Positions 97-3,487 of a DNA stretch of 11,024 bases are shown here, piece after piece. The stretch's first letter is position 1; every line of letters starts with the position of its first letter. The stretch covers positions 1-11,024 of the forward strand of contig CAZDBQ010000121.1 of the NCBI GenBank assembly GCA_964503765.1, read 5' to 3'. The notes beneath the pieces were generated by a model. The model had not been told where the DNA came from, made no database searches, and was given only the letters and a program-made list of their open reading frames with translations. A program made the translations under genes and the position numbers. Source of the stretch: an uncultured Planctomycetia bacterium. Its GTDB lineage: Bacteria > Omnitrophota > Gorgyraeia > 2-02-FULL-51-18.

Positions 97-126
97 TTGA
101 ACCTCCTAGAGGCCTTGTGCTATAGT
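97..126 (+). promoter_or_regulatory. candidate sigma70-type promoter for smpB (-35 TTGAAC 97-102, 18-nt spacer, -10 TATAGT 121-126)
   Basis: Hexamers read directly from the sequence. The -10 ends 7 nt before the ATG at 134, so the transcript would be leaderless or nearly so, and no SD precedes the start. A consensus TTGACA also occurs at 50-55 but has no properly spaced -10. Confidence 0.3.
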
Positions 127-133
127 GACCCTT

Positions 134-607
134 ATGAAGGAAAAGAGCCCAGACCCCGTTATTACCACCAATAGAGAAGCCGGCCGCGACTATTTTATCC
201 TGGAAACGCTGGAAGCTGGGATAGTGCTTGTTGGCTGCGAAGTGAAATCTCTGAGAGAAAGGCAGGCTAGTCTTTCGGGCAGCTTTGCCCGGGTCGATGG
301 AGAGGAGCTCTTTTTGTACAATCTTTTTATCGCCCCTTATGAAATGGGTAACCGCGAAAATCCCGAGCCGCTCCGCACGCGTAAGCTTTTAGTTCATCGA
401 TCTCAAATACACAAGCTGAAAGCCAAGACGATGGAAAAGGGCCTGCTGCTTGTTCCTCTTAAGATGTATTTCAATAAGGAAGGCCGGGCAAAAGTTGAGC
501 TGGCGGTGGCCAAGGGAAAGAAGCATCATGACAAACGGTCGGACCTAAAAAAGCAATCGGCCTCACGCGAGATTGACCGTGAGATAAAGAATAGAAATAG
601 GAACTAA
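134..607 (+). CDS. smpB: SsrA-binding protein SmpB
   Basis: The translation (MKEKSPDPVITTNREAGRDYFILETLEAGIVLVGCEVKSLR...) aligns with the SmpB family (E. coli ...[29 protein letters not shown]...). It is about 157 aa and carries the typical basic C-terminal tail, and tmRNA lies immediately downstream. The ORF opens at GTG 125. ATG 134 gives the N-terminal length matching homologues, but the start remains ambiguous between 125 and 134. Confidence 0.9.
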   Translation: MKEKSPDPVITTNREAGRDYFILETLEAGIVLVGCEVKSLRERQASLSGSFARVDGEELFLYNLFIAPYEMGNRENPEPLRTRKLLVHRSQIHKLKAKTMEKGLLLVPLKMYFNKEGRAKVELAVAKGKKHHDKRSDLKKQSASREIDREIKNRNRN

Positions 608-626
608 ATTGAGGTATGATTGAATT

Positions 627-1007
627 GGGGGCGACAGGAATCGATCTGGCTCTTTGATCCGATAGTGGCATGTGGAGGTTGTCGGGCGGCCTCCTTAAAC
701 ACCTGACAAAAATCAAACGCTAAAAACACGATACAGGTGCCGTTCGCGGCACCGATGGCGTTCCGCCTAGCCGCCTAAAAACGGTTAGCCGTCCGCCCAT
801 CCTCGTCTGTGGGGTGGGGCCGGGCGTCGACAACAGACTGGTCAAATCCGCGCGTCCTTGGCGTATTTGGCGAGAGCGACAGAGGGCTTGCTCTTCAGAA
901 TTGCGTTAACTCAAGTCTGAAGAGGACGCTAATAAGTTGACTAAGCATGTAGAGGCTACGGACCTCGAAGGTTAGAGACGCGAGTTCAAATCTCGCCGCC
1001 TCCACCA
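627..1007 (+). ncRNA. ssrA: transfer-messenger RNA (tmRNA, one-piece)
   Basis: The 5' GGGGGCG (627-633) pairs with the 3' CGCCUCC (994-1000), followed by discriminator A and CCA (1001-1007). The stem includes the G3:U pair that is the alanine identity element. The T-arm is GACGCGAGUUCAAAUCUCGCC. The 3' domain CUAAGCAUGUAGAGGCUACGGACCUCGAAGGUUAGAGACGCGAGUUCAAAUCUCGCCGCCUCCACCA closely resembles E. coli tmRNA (CUAAGCAUGUAGUACCGAGGAUGUAGGAAUUUCGGACGCGGGUUCAACUCCCGCCAGCUCCACCA). An internal tag reading frame ends ...RLAA-TAA, and the gene sits directly 3' of smpB. Confidence 0.88.
719..778 (+). other. predicted tmRNA tag-peptide reading frame (GCT resume codon at 719 to TAA at 776-778; tag AKNTIQVPFAAPMAFRLAA)
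   Basis: The GCT at tmRNA nt 93 matches the position of the E. coli resume codon (nt 90) and is preceded by an A-rich stretch. The frame runs 19 codons to TAA and ends in the canonical hydrophobic ...LAA. Shorter alternatives (resume at GCG 746 or GCA 749, giving AAPMAFRLAA) cannot be excluded from sequence alone. Confidence 0.4.
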
Positions 1008-1039
1008 TTAAAACCCCAGAGTTAATAGGAGGGATGATC

Positions 1040-1423
1040 ATGGCTAAGAAAGCGAAGCAGCTTCAGTTTTCCACCCCCAACCGGCCCGGTGTGCTGGCCA
1101 GCGTGACCGACGCTTTGAAAAAAGCGCGTATCAATATCGTGGACATTTGCGCGTGGGGAGAGGGTTCAAAAGCTTGTTTTGGGCTCATTACCACTCGTAA
1201 TGCGGCAGCCAAGAAGGCCTTGAAGAAATTAGGCTTCTCAGCATCCGAAAAAGAAGTCCTTCTGCTCAATCTCAAAAACAGCGTAGGCTCACTCAGCCGC
1301 GTCGCGCGAAAGCTGGCAAAGGCAAAGGTGAATATCACATGCCTGGATGCCACAACGGCCGGCAAAAGAGCGACGGTTCTGATTAATACCAGCAACAACA
1401 AGAAAGCGGCGCGTTTAGTTTAA
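1040..1423 (+). CDS. stand-alone tandem ACT-domain protein (regulatory ligand-binding fold), function unknown
   Basis: Two repeats of roughly 60 aa carry ACT-like signatures ([23 protein letters not shown]... and [24 protein letters not shown]...). A strong SD, AGGAGG, lies at 1027-1032, 7 nt before ATG 1040. The ORF also has an in-frame ATG at 1034, but its spacing to the SD is too short. Confidence 0.65.
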
Positions 1424-1455
1424 TCGTTTACCCCTGAAGTCAAAGGAGTCCCAAG

Positions 1456-2214
1456 ATGCCAGTCATCTTTTTTTTGCCTTTTATCATCATTTTAGCGTCC
1501 TTATCAATCAGGATTATCCAGCAGTACCAAAATTCCGTCGTGTTTACGCTGGGGAAATTCACTAGAATTTTGAAGCCTGGCTTCAATTTAATTATTCCCA
1601 TTATCGAATGGACGAACACGATCGATATGCGCGTTCTTACGCGTGACATCCCCAGGCAACAGGTGATCACTAAAGATAACGTGCCGGTCACGATCAATGG
1701 CGTGGTGTATTTCAGAGTTGTCAATGCCGCTACCTCTATTATTGAGGTGCAGGATTACAACTACGCGATTTCCCAGTACTCTCAGGCGGCCTTGCGTGAT
1801 GTCGTCGGAGGCATGACATTCGACGACCTCTTGGCGGAGCGGCAGAAGATCGGGGAAGAAATCGAAAAGATCGTCAGAACTGAAAGCGCCAACTGGGGTC
1901 TTGAAGTGGCGGCAATTAAGATTCAGGACGTCGATGTGCCCGAGGACTTGAAGAAGATGATGTCACGGCAAGCATCCGCCGAAAGAGAGAAACGCGCGAC
2001 GATCACGAAGGCGGAAGGGGACAAGCTGGCGGCGTTTAACCTGGCTGAGGCGGCGCACACAATGCATGAAAGCCCTGGCGCGATGCAGCTGCGTACTCTG
2101 CAGACGATTGATGGCTTAGGCCCGACGGCCTCAAACACGGTGATCCTCGCGGTTCCGGTGGAGCTTATGGAGCTGGTCAAAGCTTATACGAATAAAATAG
2201 AAAAAAAAGTTTAA
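1456..2214 (+). CDS. SPFH/band-7 family membrane protein (stomatin-like, QmcA/YbbK-type)
   Basis: The N-terminus has a transmembrane segment (MPVIFFLPFIIILASLSIRII). The SPFH core ...QQVITKDNVPVTINGVVYFRVVNAATSIIEVQDYNYAISQYSQAALRDVVGGMTFDDLLAERQKIGEEI... aligns with E. coli QmcA, and a coiled-coil C-terminus follows. SD AAGGAG at 1443-1448 lies 7 nt before the ATG. Confidence 0.85.
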   Translation: MPVIFFLPFIIILASLSIRIIQQYQNSVVFTLGKFTRILKPGFNLIIPIIEWTNTIDMRVLTRDIPRQQVITKDNVPVTINGVVYFRVVNAATSIIEVQDYNYAISQYSQAALRDVVGGMTFDDLLAERQKIGEEIEKIVRTESANWGLEVAAIKIQDVDVPEDLKKMMSRQASAEREKRATITKAEGDKLAAFNLAEAAHTMHESPGAMQLRTLQTIDGLGPTASNTVILAVPVELMELVKAYTNKIEKKV

Positions 2215-2236
2215 GTAAAATTTAGAAAGTAATTTT

Positions 2237-2806
2237 TTGAACACAAAACAAAAGAAAACAAATCTTGTCTGGGTCGACCTTGAGATGACAGGGCTGGATC
2301 CCAAAAAATGCACCATTCTTGAAATTGGGGCTATTGTCACGGATGGGGAGCTCAATGTCATCGCCGAAGGGCCTTTTTTAGCGGTCCATCACAGCGAAAA
2401 GACACTGCGCTCGATGGAGGCGTGGAGCAAACACCACCATAAACTTTCCGGTCTCACCGACGCTTGCCGCGAGTCCAAGTTTTCCCTCAAGAAGGCCGAG
2501 GACGAGGTCCTTAAGTTCGTGAAAGAACACTGCAAGGAAAAGACGGCGCCTCTCTGCGGCAATACGATCTGGCAGGACAGGCGTTTTCTCATTAAATACA
2601 TGCCTCGTCTTGAATCCTACCTGCATTATCGCGTGATTGACGTGAGTTCCGTGAAGGAGCTTGTGGTGCGCTGGTATGGCAAGGACCACAAGGTGCCCCG
2701 CCTTAAAAAGCAGACGCATCGTGTTTGTGAGGATATTCGGGAGTCCATCGAAGAGCTTAAGCACTACCGCCAAAAAGTTTTCATTCCCCTGGGCAAGTCC
2801 AACTGA
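2237..2806 (+). CDS. orn: oligoribonuclease (DEDDh 3'-5' exonuclease)
   Basis: ...[46 protein letters not shown]...[17 protein letters not shown]...[12 protein letters not shown]... is collinear with E. coli Orn ([27 protein letters not shown]...CGNSIGQDRRFLFKYMP). The only start that retains the catalytic D-x-E motif is TTG at 2237; the nearest ATG, at 2285, would delete it. No SD is present; the leader is A-rich. Confidence 0.85.
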   Translation: [189 protein letters not shown]

Positions 2807-3070
2807 GCGTCCACCAAATAATGGATACGCTGGCTGAGCCAATTTTGGAACGAGACAAGGAAAGAGGAGGAGGAATAGTGTTAACTATGCCGACGACGAG
2901 TGACGCAGTCGCAGTCCAAAATAGGCCAGCCCCTTCGGGGAAGCCCCATCTTTGGTCGTCTGCTTCGTTGCTCCTCCTCGGCGGGCTTAAAAGCACACCT
3001 CGTCGTCGCGCCTTGCATACGACACAAATCTGGGGCTTCCAGCATATCCATTATTTGGTGGACGCTCAGT
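2802..3070. repeat. 269-bp element bounded by a perfect 26-bp terminal inverted repeat (ACTGAGCGTCCACCAAATAATGGATA at 2802-2827; exact reverse complement at 3045-3070); MITE-like insertion, invertible DNA segment or structured RNA
   Basis: The inverted repeat was verified base by base and is 26/26 perfect, with mismatches immediately outside (2801/3071) and inside (2828/3044). The 217-bp interior contains three further perfect complementary block pairs: 2864-2872/2971-2979, 2891-2900/2999-3008 and 2939-2948/3031-3040. The left repeat overlaps the orn stop codon (TGA 2804-2806). None of the ORFs in the interior looks like a protein. Confidence 0.6.
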
Positions 3071-3124
3071 AAAGTGTCCGTTTTTCCAGTTTCATCCCAA
3101 AAAATCCAAGAACTACGAATCAAG

Positions 3125-3487
3125 ATGGAGAAGTTAGGCCTTAAGGAGTCTGACTTTGAGGAAAACTTTATTCGCTCCGGGGGACCAGGGGGCCAGAATG
3201 TCAACAAGGTCTCTACCTGCGTTGTTTTAAGGCATGGGCCGACAGGCTTGGAAGTGCGCTGTCAGCGGGAACGTTCGCAGGCCCTCAATCGTTACCTTGC
3301 CAGGCGCCTTTTGGTCAGCAAACTCGAAGAGCGCGTTTTAGGGATCGCCTCAGAGCGGCGAATGGCCATCGAGAAGATACGCCGCCAGAAACGAAAACGT
3401 TCGAAGAGAGCCAAAGACAAGATGCTTCAAAATAAAAAGCATCAATCCCTTAAAAAGTCCCTGCGCGCCCGGCCGTCCGATTTTTAA
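3125..3487 (+). CDS. arfB: ArfB/ICT1-family peptidyl-tRNA hydrolase (RF-1 GGQ domain protein, alternative ribosome rescue factor B-like), compact variant
   Basis: The GGQ motif sits in ...DFEENFIRSGGPGGQNVNKVSTCVVLRH..., which aligns with E. coli ArfB (...[29 protein letters not shown]...). It is followed by ...RERSQALNR... (compare EYRSQELNRE) and a Lys/Arg-rich C-terminal tail (RRQKRKRSKRAKDK...), as in ArfB. The start is uncertain. ATG 3125 has no SD, while an in-frame GTG at 3074 is preceded by GGTGGA (3057-3062). The reading frame is open back to 2900 through the inverted-repeat element. Confidence 0.72.
   Translation: MEKLGLKESDFEENFIRSGGPGGQNVNKVSTCVVLRHGPTGLEVRCQRERSQALNRYLARRLLVSKLEERVLGIASERRMAIEKIRRQKRKRSKRAKDKMLQNKKHQSLKKSLRARPSDF

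Follow-up and report, generated by a model that had tools for sequence, protein, structure and literature searches.

A Folded, Non-Coding Repeat Inserted between orn and arfB of a Candidatus Omnitrophota Genome May Represent an Undescribed Family of Mobile Hairpin Elements

Organization of the orn–arfB Junction

The stretch of DNA analyzed here (the window, 11,024 bp) is a whole contig of a metagenome-assembled genome of Candidatus Omnitrophota. Between orn, encoding for oligoribonuclease, and an ArfB-like gene (hereafter arfB) it carries a palindromic element with a perfect 26-bp inverted repeat at its ends, and this element is the subject of the present study. The gene order is smpB, tmRNA (627–1007), an open reading frame (ORF) with an ACT domain, an SPFH gene, orn, the element, arfB, a TPR gene on the opposite strand and PEPCK. 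The features of the junction are as follows.

2237–2806, + strand: orn (oligoribonuclease), Pfam RNase_T, 3.4e-29; its current stop TGA (2804–2806) comes from the 5′ arm of the element
2802–3070, + strand: full palindromic element as folded, 269 nt; nhmmer family profile score of 283, E 1e-85
2802–2827, + strand: 5′ arm (left repeat) of the closing helix P1, with conserved ACTGAG, variable, covarying CGTCCACC and conserved AAATAATGG
3045–3070, + strand: 3′ arm (right repeat) of P1, with CCATTATTT, variable GGTGGACG and CTCAGT
3074–3487, + strand: arfB, ArfB-like peptidyl-tRNA hydrolase gene with a GGQ motif, start GTG 3074 by N-terminal alignment; Pfam RF-1, 2.9e-24

The start of arfB is GTG 3074 and not ATG 3125; the 17 added residues align with the N-terminus M..(Y/F)PVS..K..EL of homologues of 137–138 aa. 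The original prediction had located the orn stop within the left repeat and the element in the 5′ region of the ArfB-like gene, and both placements are correct: the TGA at 2804–2806 is in the left arm, and GTG 3074 lies 3 nt past the end of the right arm. Thus, the element occupies the entire orn–arfB gap.

The left arm (ACTGAGCGTCCACCAAATAATGGATA) is, as claimed previously, exactly reverse-complementary to the right one (26/26), with 217 nt between the arms. This is by far the strongest inverted repeat of the window, all others being no longer than 30 nt at 70–88%. The boundaries had been described as sharp; this is true of the outer edge but not of the inner edge, where imperfect pairing runs to 46 nt at 85% (2802–2847/3025–3070). 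The 217-nt interior is itself self-complementary, with a self-reverse-complement score of 82 versus −5 ± 17 for shuffles (z ~5), and the folds of both strands of the element are much more stable than those of shuffled controls (z = −8.9 and −10.4).

Copies of the Element at Other Loci

A search for further copies with the exact 18-mer GCGTCCACCAAATAATGG from the stem over GTDB genomes, JGI metagenomes and IMG/VR gave only single-arm chance matches; the part of the stem used varies between copies. The search succeeded through the translation of an 83-codon ORF that spans the element (2821–3072, + strand), which is not a gene and served to find relatives. As a query, it gave ~50 relatives at 44–80% identity, and in the full library of 1.8 billion proteins it gave 62 cluster representatives, 29 of them at E ≤ 1e-10. 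All family copies were therefore found through ORF calls on one strand. At the DNA level, there are seven distinct copies at seven different gene junctions, namely that of the window and six others:

L022 (also L023, L024): junction murF / mraY
L027 (also L028, L029): junction ftsQ-like / ftsA
L021: junction class-V aminotransferase / tatD
L020: junction adenine glycosylase / hypothetical
L026: junction lptC-like / unknown
L025: junction hypothetical / glycosyltransferase

Pairwise identity between the copies is 71–97%, and L020 and L021 are 97.4% identical at unrelated loci. Two of the protein-level relatives, P0257 and P0292, both map to a contig of equal length (266,447 bp), which probably carries two element copies. 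The elements are richer in GC (0.51–0.57) than their flanks (0.44–0.51). No additional copies were found by a profile search of 183 kb of retrieved loci, and only chance matches were obtained from phage, plasmid and viral collections (viral contigs scanned with core motifs; phages and plasmids searched by distant BLAST).

The copies fit closely between the neighbouring genes. In five of the seven loci, the upstream stop codon lies in the 5′ arm or 3 nt before it, and the downstream start codon lies inside the 3′ arm or at most 4 nt from it. At loci without an in-frame stop, host ORFs run on into the element (P0308, P0327, P0332). The translation of P0341 continues in frame into an apparent C-terminal third of a class-II aminotransferase (HPIVGLMIRD...IRFQISADHT); this copy may sit inside a coding region, reminiscent of the Rickettsia palindromic elements. 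Judging by these loci, the family occupies many unrelated gene junctions in Omnitrophota-type genomes and encodes no protein.

The 26-bp Repeat as the Closing Helix of a Conserved Fold

All copies possess a near-perfect closing helix (P1) of 23–30 bp, the middle of which differs in sequence from copy to copy. Sequence conservation of P1 is found at its ends, ACTGA(G) and (A)AATAATGG, and the intervening 8–12 bp vary yet stay complementary: the middle pairs are CGTCCACC/GGTGGACG in the window, CCTTCACT/AGTGAAGG in L021 and ACTCCGGGC/GCCGGAGT in L022, and L025 carries a perfect 26-bp stem of its own. Double-sided changes were observed in 10 of the 23 pairs of P1, with 98% of the cells paired. 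Hence, the 26-bp repeat is the closing helix of a conserved fold and not a classical transposon terminus.

The consensus fold, obtained by RNAalifold from the seven copies (alignment A2), consists of P1 and two arm domains of ~110–145 nt, each closed by its own helix of 16–20 bp. The left domain is closed by GGCUG-A-GCCGAUUUUGG/CCAAAAUCGGC-CAGCC (2832–2851/2914–2931) and the right one by GGAAGCCCC.../...GGGGCUUCC (2939–2956/3022–3040). Inside P1, the features of the window copy are as follows.

2832–2851, + strand: P2, 5′ strand, closes the left domain (2832–2931); pairs with 2914–2931
2863–2900, + strand: purine-rich conserved core segments A (AGAGGAGGAGG) and B (CGACGACGAG), flanking hpA
2873–2890, + strand: hairpin hpA of the left domain, AUAGU-GUUA-ACUAU; other hairpins take its place in other copies
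2914–2931, + strand: P2, 3′ strand, partner of 2832–2851
2932–2938, + strand: dyad centre, or apical linker; 7–27 nt long among the copies (columns 177–196 of alignment A2)
2939–2956, + strand: P3, 5′ strand, closes the right domain (2939–3040); pairs with 3022–3040 (inverted repeat I23)
2971–3008, + strand: pyrimidine-rich conserved core segments A′ (CTCCTCCTCG, 2971–2980) and B′ (CTCGTCGTCG, 2999–3008), flanking hpB
2980–2998, + strand: hairpin hpB of the right domain, weak in the window copy and strong elsewhere; covarying pairs 244/257, 247/254 and 248/256
3022–3040, + strand: P3, 3′ strand, partner of 2939–2956

In the supported helices, 96.5% of the cells are paired versus 29–45% when the partners are slid by 1–3 columns. 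Double-sided changes occur in 21 of 65 pairs versus 1–3 in the slid controls, and none of 500 shuffles reaches the observed values. To extend the comparison, the proteins called from the ORF were back-translated to unambiguous nucleotides; checked against the seven known DNAs, this gave 992 matches and 3 mismatches. Over 91 sequences, the P2 pair 40/169 is distributed as CG45/UA12/UG13/CA1, the hpA pair 97/112 as AU43/GC22 and the P3 pair 206/296 as CG18/GC13/AU5/GU3, so that these three pairs covary over 46–73 sequences.

The core segments GAGGAGGAGG, CGACGACGAG, CUCCUCCUC and CUCGUCGUCG are strongly conserved and complementary in more than one register. Watson–Crick complementarity is 84% for A:A′, 78% for B:B′, 82% for B:A′ and 31% for A:B′. 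No covariation was found in the core pairings, either as inter-domain contacts (A:A′, B:B′) or as a full-length rod (A:B′, B:A′). The peripheral hairpins vary in sequence and length, with swaps or insertions in L022, L026 and L027 and extra hairpins in L021 and L027. Based on these alignments, the fold is kept by compensatory changes, and the stem ends and the internal core are kept in sequence.

The same extra GC-rich hairpin (GCCTGCCTGCCGG(A)CAGGCAGG) occurs at different positions of the element, in columns 59–79 of alignment A2 in L021 and in columns 115–135 in L027. Its motif is also present in the translations of P0265, P0289 and P0314 (…LPACRTGR…, …LPAGRQGR…). This hairpin may be a small mobile unit lying inside the element.

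The original prediction had taken the perfect pairing as a sign of a DNA-level origin and not of a structural RNA, and had named conservation with compensatory base changes as favouring the latter. Compensatory changes were in fact found, across paralogous copies rather than at an orthologous locus, and the perfect pairing does not by itself exclude a structural role. A constraint at the DNA level is still a reasonable part of that claim: departures from Watson–Crick pairing are rare both ways, with no strong overall bias (42 G.U versus 30 A.C).

Dyad Symmetry, Strand and Orientation

The plus-strand profile of the family matches the minus strand of every copy over the full length (E 1e-21 to 1e-32; 1e-25 for the window copy). 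It follows that the element consists of two diverged inverted copies of a unit of ~130 nt. Since P2 and P3 are helices within a unit, their covariation favours a clover over a single rod.

The signals for the active strand conflict. The antisense strand folds slightly better (consensus of −114.3 versus −107.6 kcal/mol; 6 of 7 copies), whereas the counts of G.U versus A.C on the sense strand are 16:1 in P2 and 9:4 in P1, with 15:18 in P3 and 2:5 in hpA. All seven copies are co-oriented with both neighbouring genes, which corresponds to p ~0.008 at face value. As the copies were found via ORF calls on that very strand, this co-orientation may be an ascertainment artefact. If the bias is real, host selection on P1 cannot explain it, because the arms are perfect inverted repeats and the stop and start features of P1 are equal in either orientation. 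The internal orientation is identical at all seven loci; two of them are each represented by three independent assemblies, which agree in this.

Insertion into a Pre-Existing Junction

The original prediction proposed comparing the orn–arfB region of relatives for the presence or absence of the element, and empty sites were indeed found in the DNA of L008 and in the Orn alleles P0121 and P0294. The syntenic relatives L001, L002 and L004 lack the element, and in L001 and L004 orn and arfB abut or overlap. The closest relative with available DNA, L008 (ArfB 88% identical), reads ...ttc att cct CAG TAA ATG ttg... at this place, without the element. Within one 90% cluster, the Orn C-termini are ...IPLGKSN* in the window, ...IPLGKSQ* in P0121 (98% identical) and ...IPQ* in P0294; the Orn of L008 ends in ...IPQ* as well. 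The end KSQ* of P0121 needs TCC CAR and a stop, and excising 2801–3066 from the window leaves TCC CAG TAA (Gln-stop); from this, we infer that the inserted DNA is the 266 nt between TCC and CAGTAA. This reconstruction is based on one DNA empty site (L008) and two protein C-termini (P0121, P0294), and it gives the following two features.

2801–3066, + strand: inserted DNA as deduced, 266 nt, relative to the empty allele ...AAG TCC / CAG TAA A GTG...; no target-site duplication
3067–3072, + strand: CAGTAA, presumed pre-existing host target, comprising a Gln codon and the original orn stop TAA; its CAGT pairs with the 5′ ACTG of the element

The boundaries of the insertion cannot slide, as the bases at either side differ. 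No duplicated target bases were found at the orn–arfB junction in this comparison of one filled/empty pair, in agreement with the lack of clean target-site duplications mentioned in the original prediction. The original orn stop TAA is kept at 3070–3072, while the new stop TGA is a part of the element. In all seven copies, the 3′ end is directly followed by CAGTA, which is also present in the empty site of L008; comparison with the empty alleles suggests that CAGTA 3067–3071, including the final 4–5 nt of the right arm, is pre-existing host sequence. The inserted DNA thus stops 4 nt short of the right-arm end, so that the last four pairs of P1 would form between the 5′ ACTG of the element and the CAGT of the host. 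At the other end, TA precedes CTGAG in four of the seven copies, and TA follows CTCAG in all seven. As far as these alleles indicate, the element is an insertion missing from near-identical alleles, i.e., a strain-level polymorphism.

It was also considered whether the element carries a programmable guide (of the bridge-RNA or exon-binding-site type), and this was rejected: the complementarity between variable segments and flanks is not above chance (a shared 7-mer is expected in 32%), and the variable stem is the same in L020 and L021 in spite of their different targets. A Shine–Dalgarno sequence in the 3′ arm for the downstream gene was rejected as well; by eye, a clear GGAG or AAGG core is present in only two of the seven copies.

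The Orn alleles of the same 90% cluster also differ by a 12-nt indel, CTGGGCAAGTCC (LGKS; window 2789–2800 versus L008 36–50, and the proteins P0121 and P0294), which sits exactly 5′ of CAGTAA, the insertion point of the element. This may be due to chance, reflect a hotspot, or be what an earlier insertion left behind, as a footprint or as transduced flanking DNA. In a sister lineage, L002 (4666–4741; also L003), the junction of the orn stop and the arfB start holds a different structure, a mini-clover of ~76 nt with a closing stem of ~20 bp and two small hairpins (minimum free energy of −55 kcal/mol, z = −9.4). GTGAC is present on both sides of it (GTGAC...GTGAC), and its 3′ arm contains the GTG start of arfB. 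This mini-clover may represent a second family of junction-seeking hairpin elements.

As for the surroundings, smpB, tmRNA (tag peptide AKNTIQVPFAAPMAFRLAA), orn and the gene for the ArfB-like rescue factor lie within 3.4 kb (125–3487), and this order is kept in relatives. The genes for trans-translation and for ArfB-type ribosome rescue are genetically linked at this smpB–arfB cluster.

Possible Nature of the Element

Based on the above results, we suggest that the window holds a recently inserted copy of an undescribed family of ~270–300-bp non-coding, dyad-symmetric mobile elements, which would be non-autonomous, recognised by their shape and probably moved in single-stranded form. We assign this reading a probability of about 0.5. 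The element would be recognised by its fold and not by a fixed terminal sequence. A trans-acting enzyme of the HUH type (IS200/IS605- or RAYT-like), encoded elsewhere, would move it as a single strand in a REPIN-like manner and insert it beside a short specific motif without duplication, using the pairing between the element tail and the target. Rare departures from Watson–Crick pairing in both directions and good folding of both strands fit such a DNA hairpin. The copies would persist at cistron junctions since gene-dense operons offer no other neutral sites. There, stop codons would be available in the 5′ arm (TGA within ACTGAG, TAA within AAATAATGG), and the next start codon would follow where the 3′ arm ends. 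On terminating in the 5′ arm, a ribosome would unwind P1, so that coupling to translation of the downstream gene could be maintained. In addition, the long perfect stem in the mRNA is a candidate RNase III site.

Several points weigh against this proposal. Within ±6 kb of the seven copies, neither an HUH transposase nor a RAYT nor any other gene for mobilisation was seen. The element is 3–4 times the size of a REPIN and bears no GTAG/CGTC tag, and a REPIN spacer is far less conserved and less complex than the interior of the element. The ends of IS200/IS605 elements are not complementary to each other. Moreover, the target motif of IS608 lies 5′ on the active strand, and by this measure the antisense strand would be the active one here; this does not match the prediction from lagging-strand targeting of co-directional genes. 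The case for insertion comes from a single filled/empty pair, in which the best empty allele (P0121) was deduced from a protein C-terminus and not from DNA. Finally, the co-orientation of all seven copies and the 16 G.U versus 1 A.C of P2 on the sense strand fit an RNA stage better.

The last of these points leads to the foremost alternative, which we regard as tentative and clearly less probable: a mobile or multi-copy structured RNA acting as a sense transcript, be it intron-like, ribozyme-like, retro-mobile or a cis-acting intercistronic module. It would be expressed by read-through of the host operon and would recognise its target by pairing of the 5′ ACUG with the downstream CAGU. Besides the orientation of the copies and the absence of an internal promoter, the G.U excess of P2 and P1 (16:1 and 9:4) speaks for it, although P3 and hpA show as many A.C as G.U and the antisense strand folds slightly better in six of the seven copies. 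Ribozymes and protein-binding RNAs likewise display a multi-helix fold in which the core, unpaired or ambiguous, is strongly conserved and the peripheral hairpins can be swapped. The duplication-free insertion beside a sequence complementary to the 5′ end of the element resembles intron–exon pairing, and the placement exactly between a stop and a start codon in five of the seven loci is likewise compatible. On the other hand, the full-length dyad symmetry is typical of DNA palindromes and not of ribozymes, the proposed inter-domain pairings show no covariation, and the orientation signal may come from the ORF-based finding. At the gathering threshold of Rfam 15, the tmRNA (627–1007) is the sole match in the window, and at E ≤ 10 nothing was found on the window, L024 and L029 copies, which stand for two subfamilies, including group I and II introns (RF00028, RF00029 and related). 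Core motifs of group I or II introns were not recognised, and no reverse transcriptase lies nearby. In its most specific form, this alternative is unlikely: a mobile structured RNA (~270 nt) without a protein, similar to a ribozyme or an intron, that is expressed solely by read-through of the host operon, chooses its junction by ACUG–CAGU(A) pairing, and inserts and excises without duplication.

The original prediction had favoured DNA-level candidates. Its proposal of a MITE (miniature inverted-repeat transposable element) holds in general terms, as the element is inserted, non-coding, mobile-looking and present at many loci, including 97.4%-identical copies, and has empty sites; its IS3-like specifics fail, since no 3–4-bp target duplication accompanies the TG...CA termini and the middle of the supposed terminal inverted repeat (TIR) is not conserved but covaries. 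A conventional TIR MITE moved by a DDE transposase with TA duplication (IS630/Tc1-like, as RUP or Correia), read as TA-CTGAG...CTCAG-TA, is rather improbable. The size, the non-coding nature, the terminal inverted repeats and the intergenic site agree with it, and so does the TA before CTGAG in four of the seven copies and after CTCAG in all seven. However, the resolved junction reads TCC-AA-CTGAG, and its derivation from TCC CAG TA-CTGAG needs a 3-nt deletion and a substitution. The middle of the repeat differs among copies yet is complementary within each, which transposase-binding TIRs do not show; the covariation of P2 and P3 is not required by a DDE mechanism; and neither a transposase nor a parent insertion sequence (IS) was found. 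The statement that no recombinase or transposase lies in the window was borne out. An invertible promoter-type switch (inverton) controlling arfB was the other earlier candidate, and its geometry, 26-bp inverted repeats around 217 bp just upstream of a gene, does fit. Nevertheless, a recombinase is missing from the window and from all seven loci, and the element contains no promoter-like site. Every copy has one internal orientation, even in the three independent assemblies of each of two loci, the same element precedes unrelated genes, and close relatives lack it. We therefore consider an inverton highly improbable.

A real gene for a small protein (83 aa) with a structured mRNA is equally hard to accept. 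An ORF spanning the element is called in ~100 sequences, often with 83 codons, and its start and stop overlap the neighbours as in coupled genes; the selection of copies by this ORF, however, guarantees an open frame by ascertainment. The homologous "proteins" switch frame internally while the nucleotides are conserved (SRRRALH/SSSSRLAS; KPHLWPSAALLLL/EARLLAVCGVAPP), hairpin swaps rewrite whole peptide stretches, and the 83-codon ORF has no Pfam match. About 100 public "hypothetical proteins" of 77–115 aa (P0241–P0348) are translations of this non-coding element, i.e., annotation artefacts. Some of these translations are fused to the ends of real genes, e.g., 3-methyladenine glycosylase in P0308.

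Comparison with Known Systems

We found no published description of such an element. On balance, it is best read as akin to REPIN- and MITE-like hairpin elements, with the REPIN as the closest precedent. A REPIN consists of two inverted units, for which both a long-hairpin fold and a clover fold exist, and it often shows compensatory changes (PMC3116915). Its excised intermediate is asymmetric, as the last ~6 bp of the right arm are left in the chromosome, and the 5′ tail of the intermediate is the complement of that 3′ end; for the mobilisation, an IS200-like HUH transposase with single-stranded DNA as its substrate has been proposed (PMC3116915). The present element resembles a REPIN in being non-autonomous and non-coding, in its two inverted units, in a hairpin kept by compensatory changes and in the lack of a target duplication. 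Likewise, its insertion holds the whole left arm and ends 4 nt short of the right-arm end, and the target CAGT(A) pairs with the 5′ ACTG. The element differs in its size (270–300 bp versus about 70–110 bp), in halves that are structured domains of ~110–145 nt with a highly conserved core instead of a REP of 20–40 nt, and in its head ACTGAG without GTAG/CGTC. Furthermore, no RAYT was found within the 6-kb flanks of the seven copies, and the element lies inside operons exactly between stop and start codons.

Correia/CREE, ERIC, RUP, and the Coxiella and Acinetobacter MITEs are small, have terminal inverted repeats of ~26 bp and show insertion polymorphism between strains. When co-transcribed, such bacterial MITEs form a long RNA stem in host transcripts and give stop or start codons to their neighbours. 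The present element is alike in size, terminal repeats, polymorphism, the stem and the supply of stop and start codons. In contrast, the resolved junction shows no direct duplication, and a parent IS was not found; the repeats of the element are conserved only at the two ends, with a covarying middle, and its internal helices covary.

In IS608, folded single-stranded DNA is recognised, and sequences of the element base-pair with cleavage or target sites. Insertion next to a short specific motif (here CAGTA) without duplication is shared with the HUH elements of the IS200/IS605 family, their non-autonomous derivatives (PATEs) and the IS91 type. However, IS200/IS605 elements have separate subterminal hairpins and, on the active strand, a target motif 5′ of the left end, whereas the ends of the present element form one helix of 23–30 bp with each other. 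Neither TnpA nor TnpB is encoded near the element, and there is no Rfam match to IS605-orfB or HEARO.

Group I and II introns share with the element the sense orientation, the absence of target duplication, the element–flank pairing, a conserved core, variable peripheral hairpins and a sporadic distribution. The element differs from them in lying between ORFs and not within them, in having neither an Rfam intron match nor a recognisable catalytic core, and in its dyad symmetry with ends that form one long perfect helix. Invertons, in turn, resemble it in having inverted repeats of 10–40 bp that flank a few hundred bp upstream of a gene, but the element has no recombinase, promoter or orientation variants and belongs to a dispersed repeat family instead.

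Significance for Omnitrophota-Type Genomes

Gene callers annotate copies of the element as hypothetical proteins of 80–90 aa, and ~100 such false entries are present in public databases. The junctions affected include those of essential genes (murF/mraY, ftsQ-like/ftsA) and, in the window, that of the ribosome-rescue gene arfB. As a strain-level insertion polymorphism, the element could serve as a marker. It would also lend itself, as a natural system, to studying the effect of long perfect intercistronic stems on translational coupling and mRNA processing.

If our reading is correct, Omnitrophota-type genomes would carry a dispersed repeat unlike textbook MITEs, with a three-helix fold, a conserved core and duplication-free insertion. 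Its insertion would take place beside a short motif with which the stem of the element becomes complete, at the exact border of genes whose translation is coupled. The family would be a new, much larger and more elaborate relative of the REPIN-type hairpin elements, or possibly an RNA-based mobile element. In the case of a protein-free mobile structured RNA, the selfish RNA elements of uncultivated bacteria would gain a new class.

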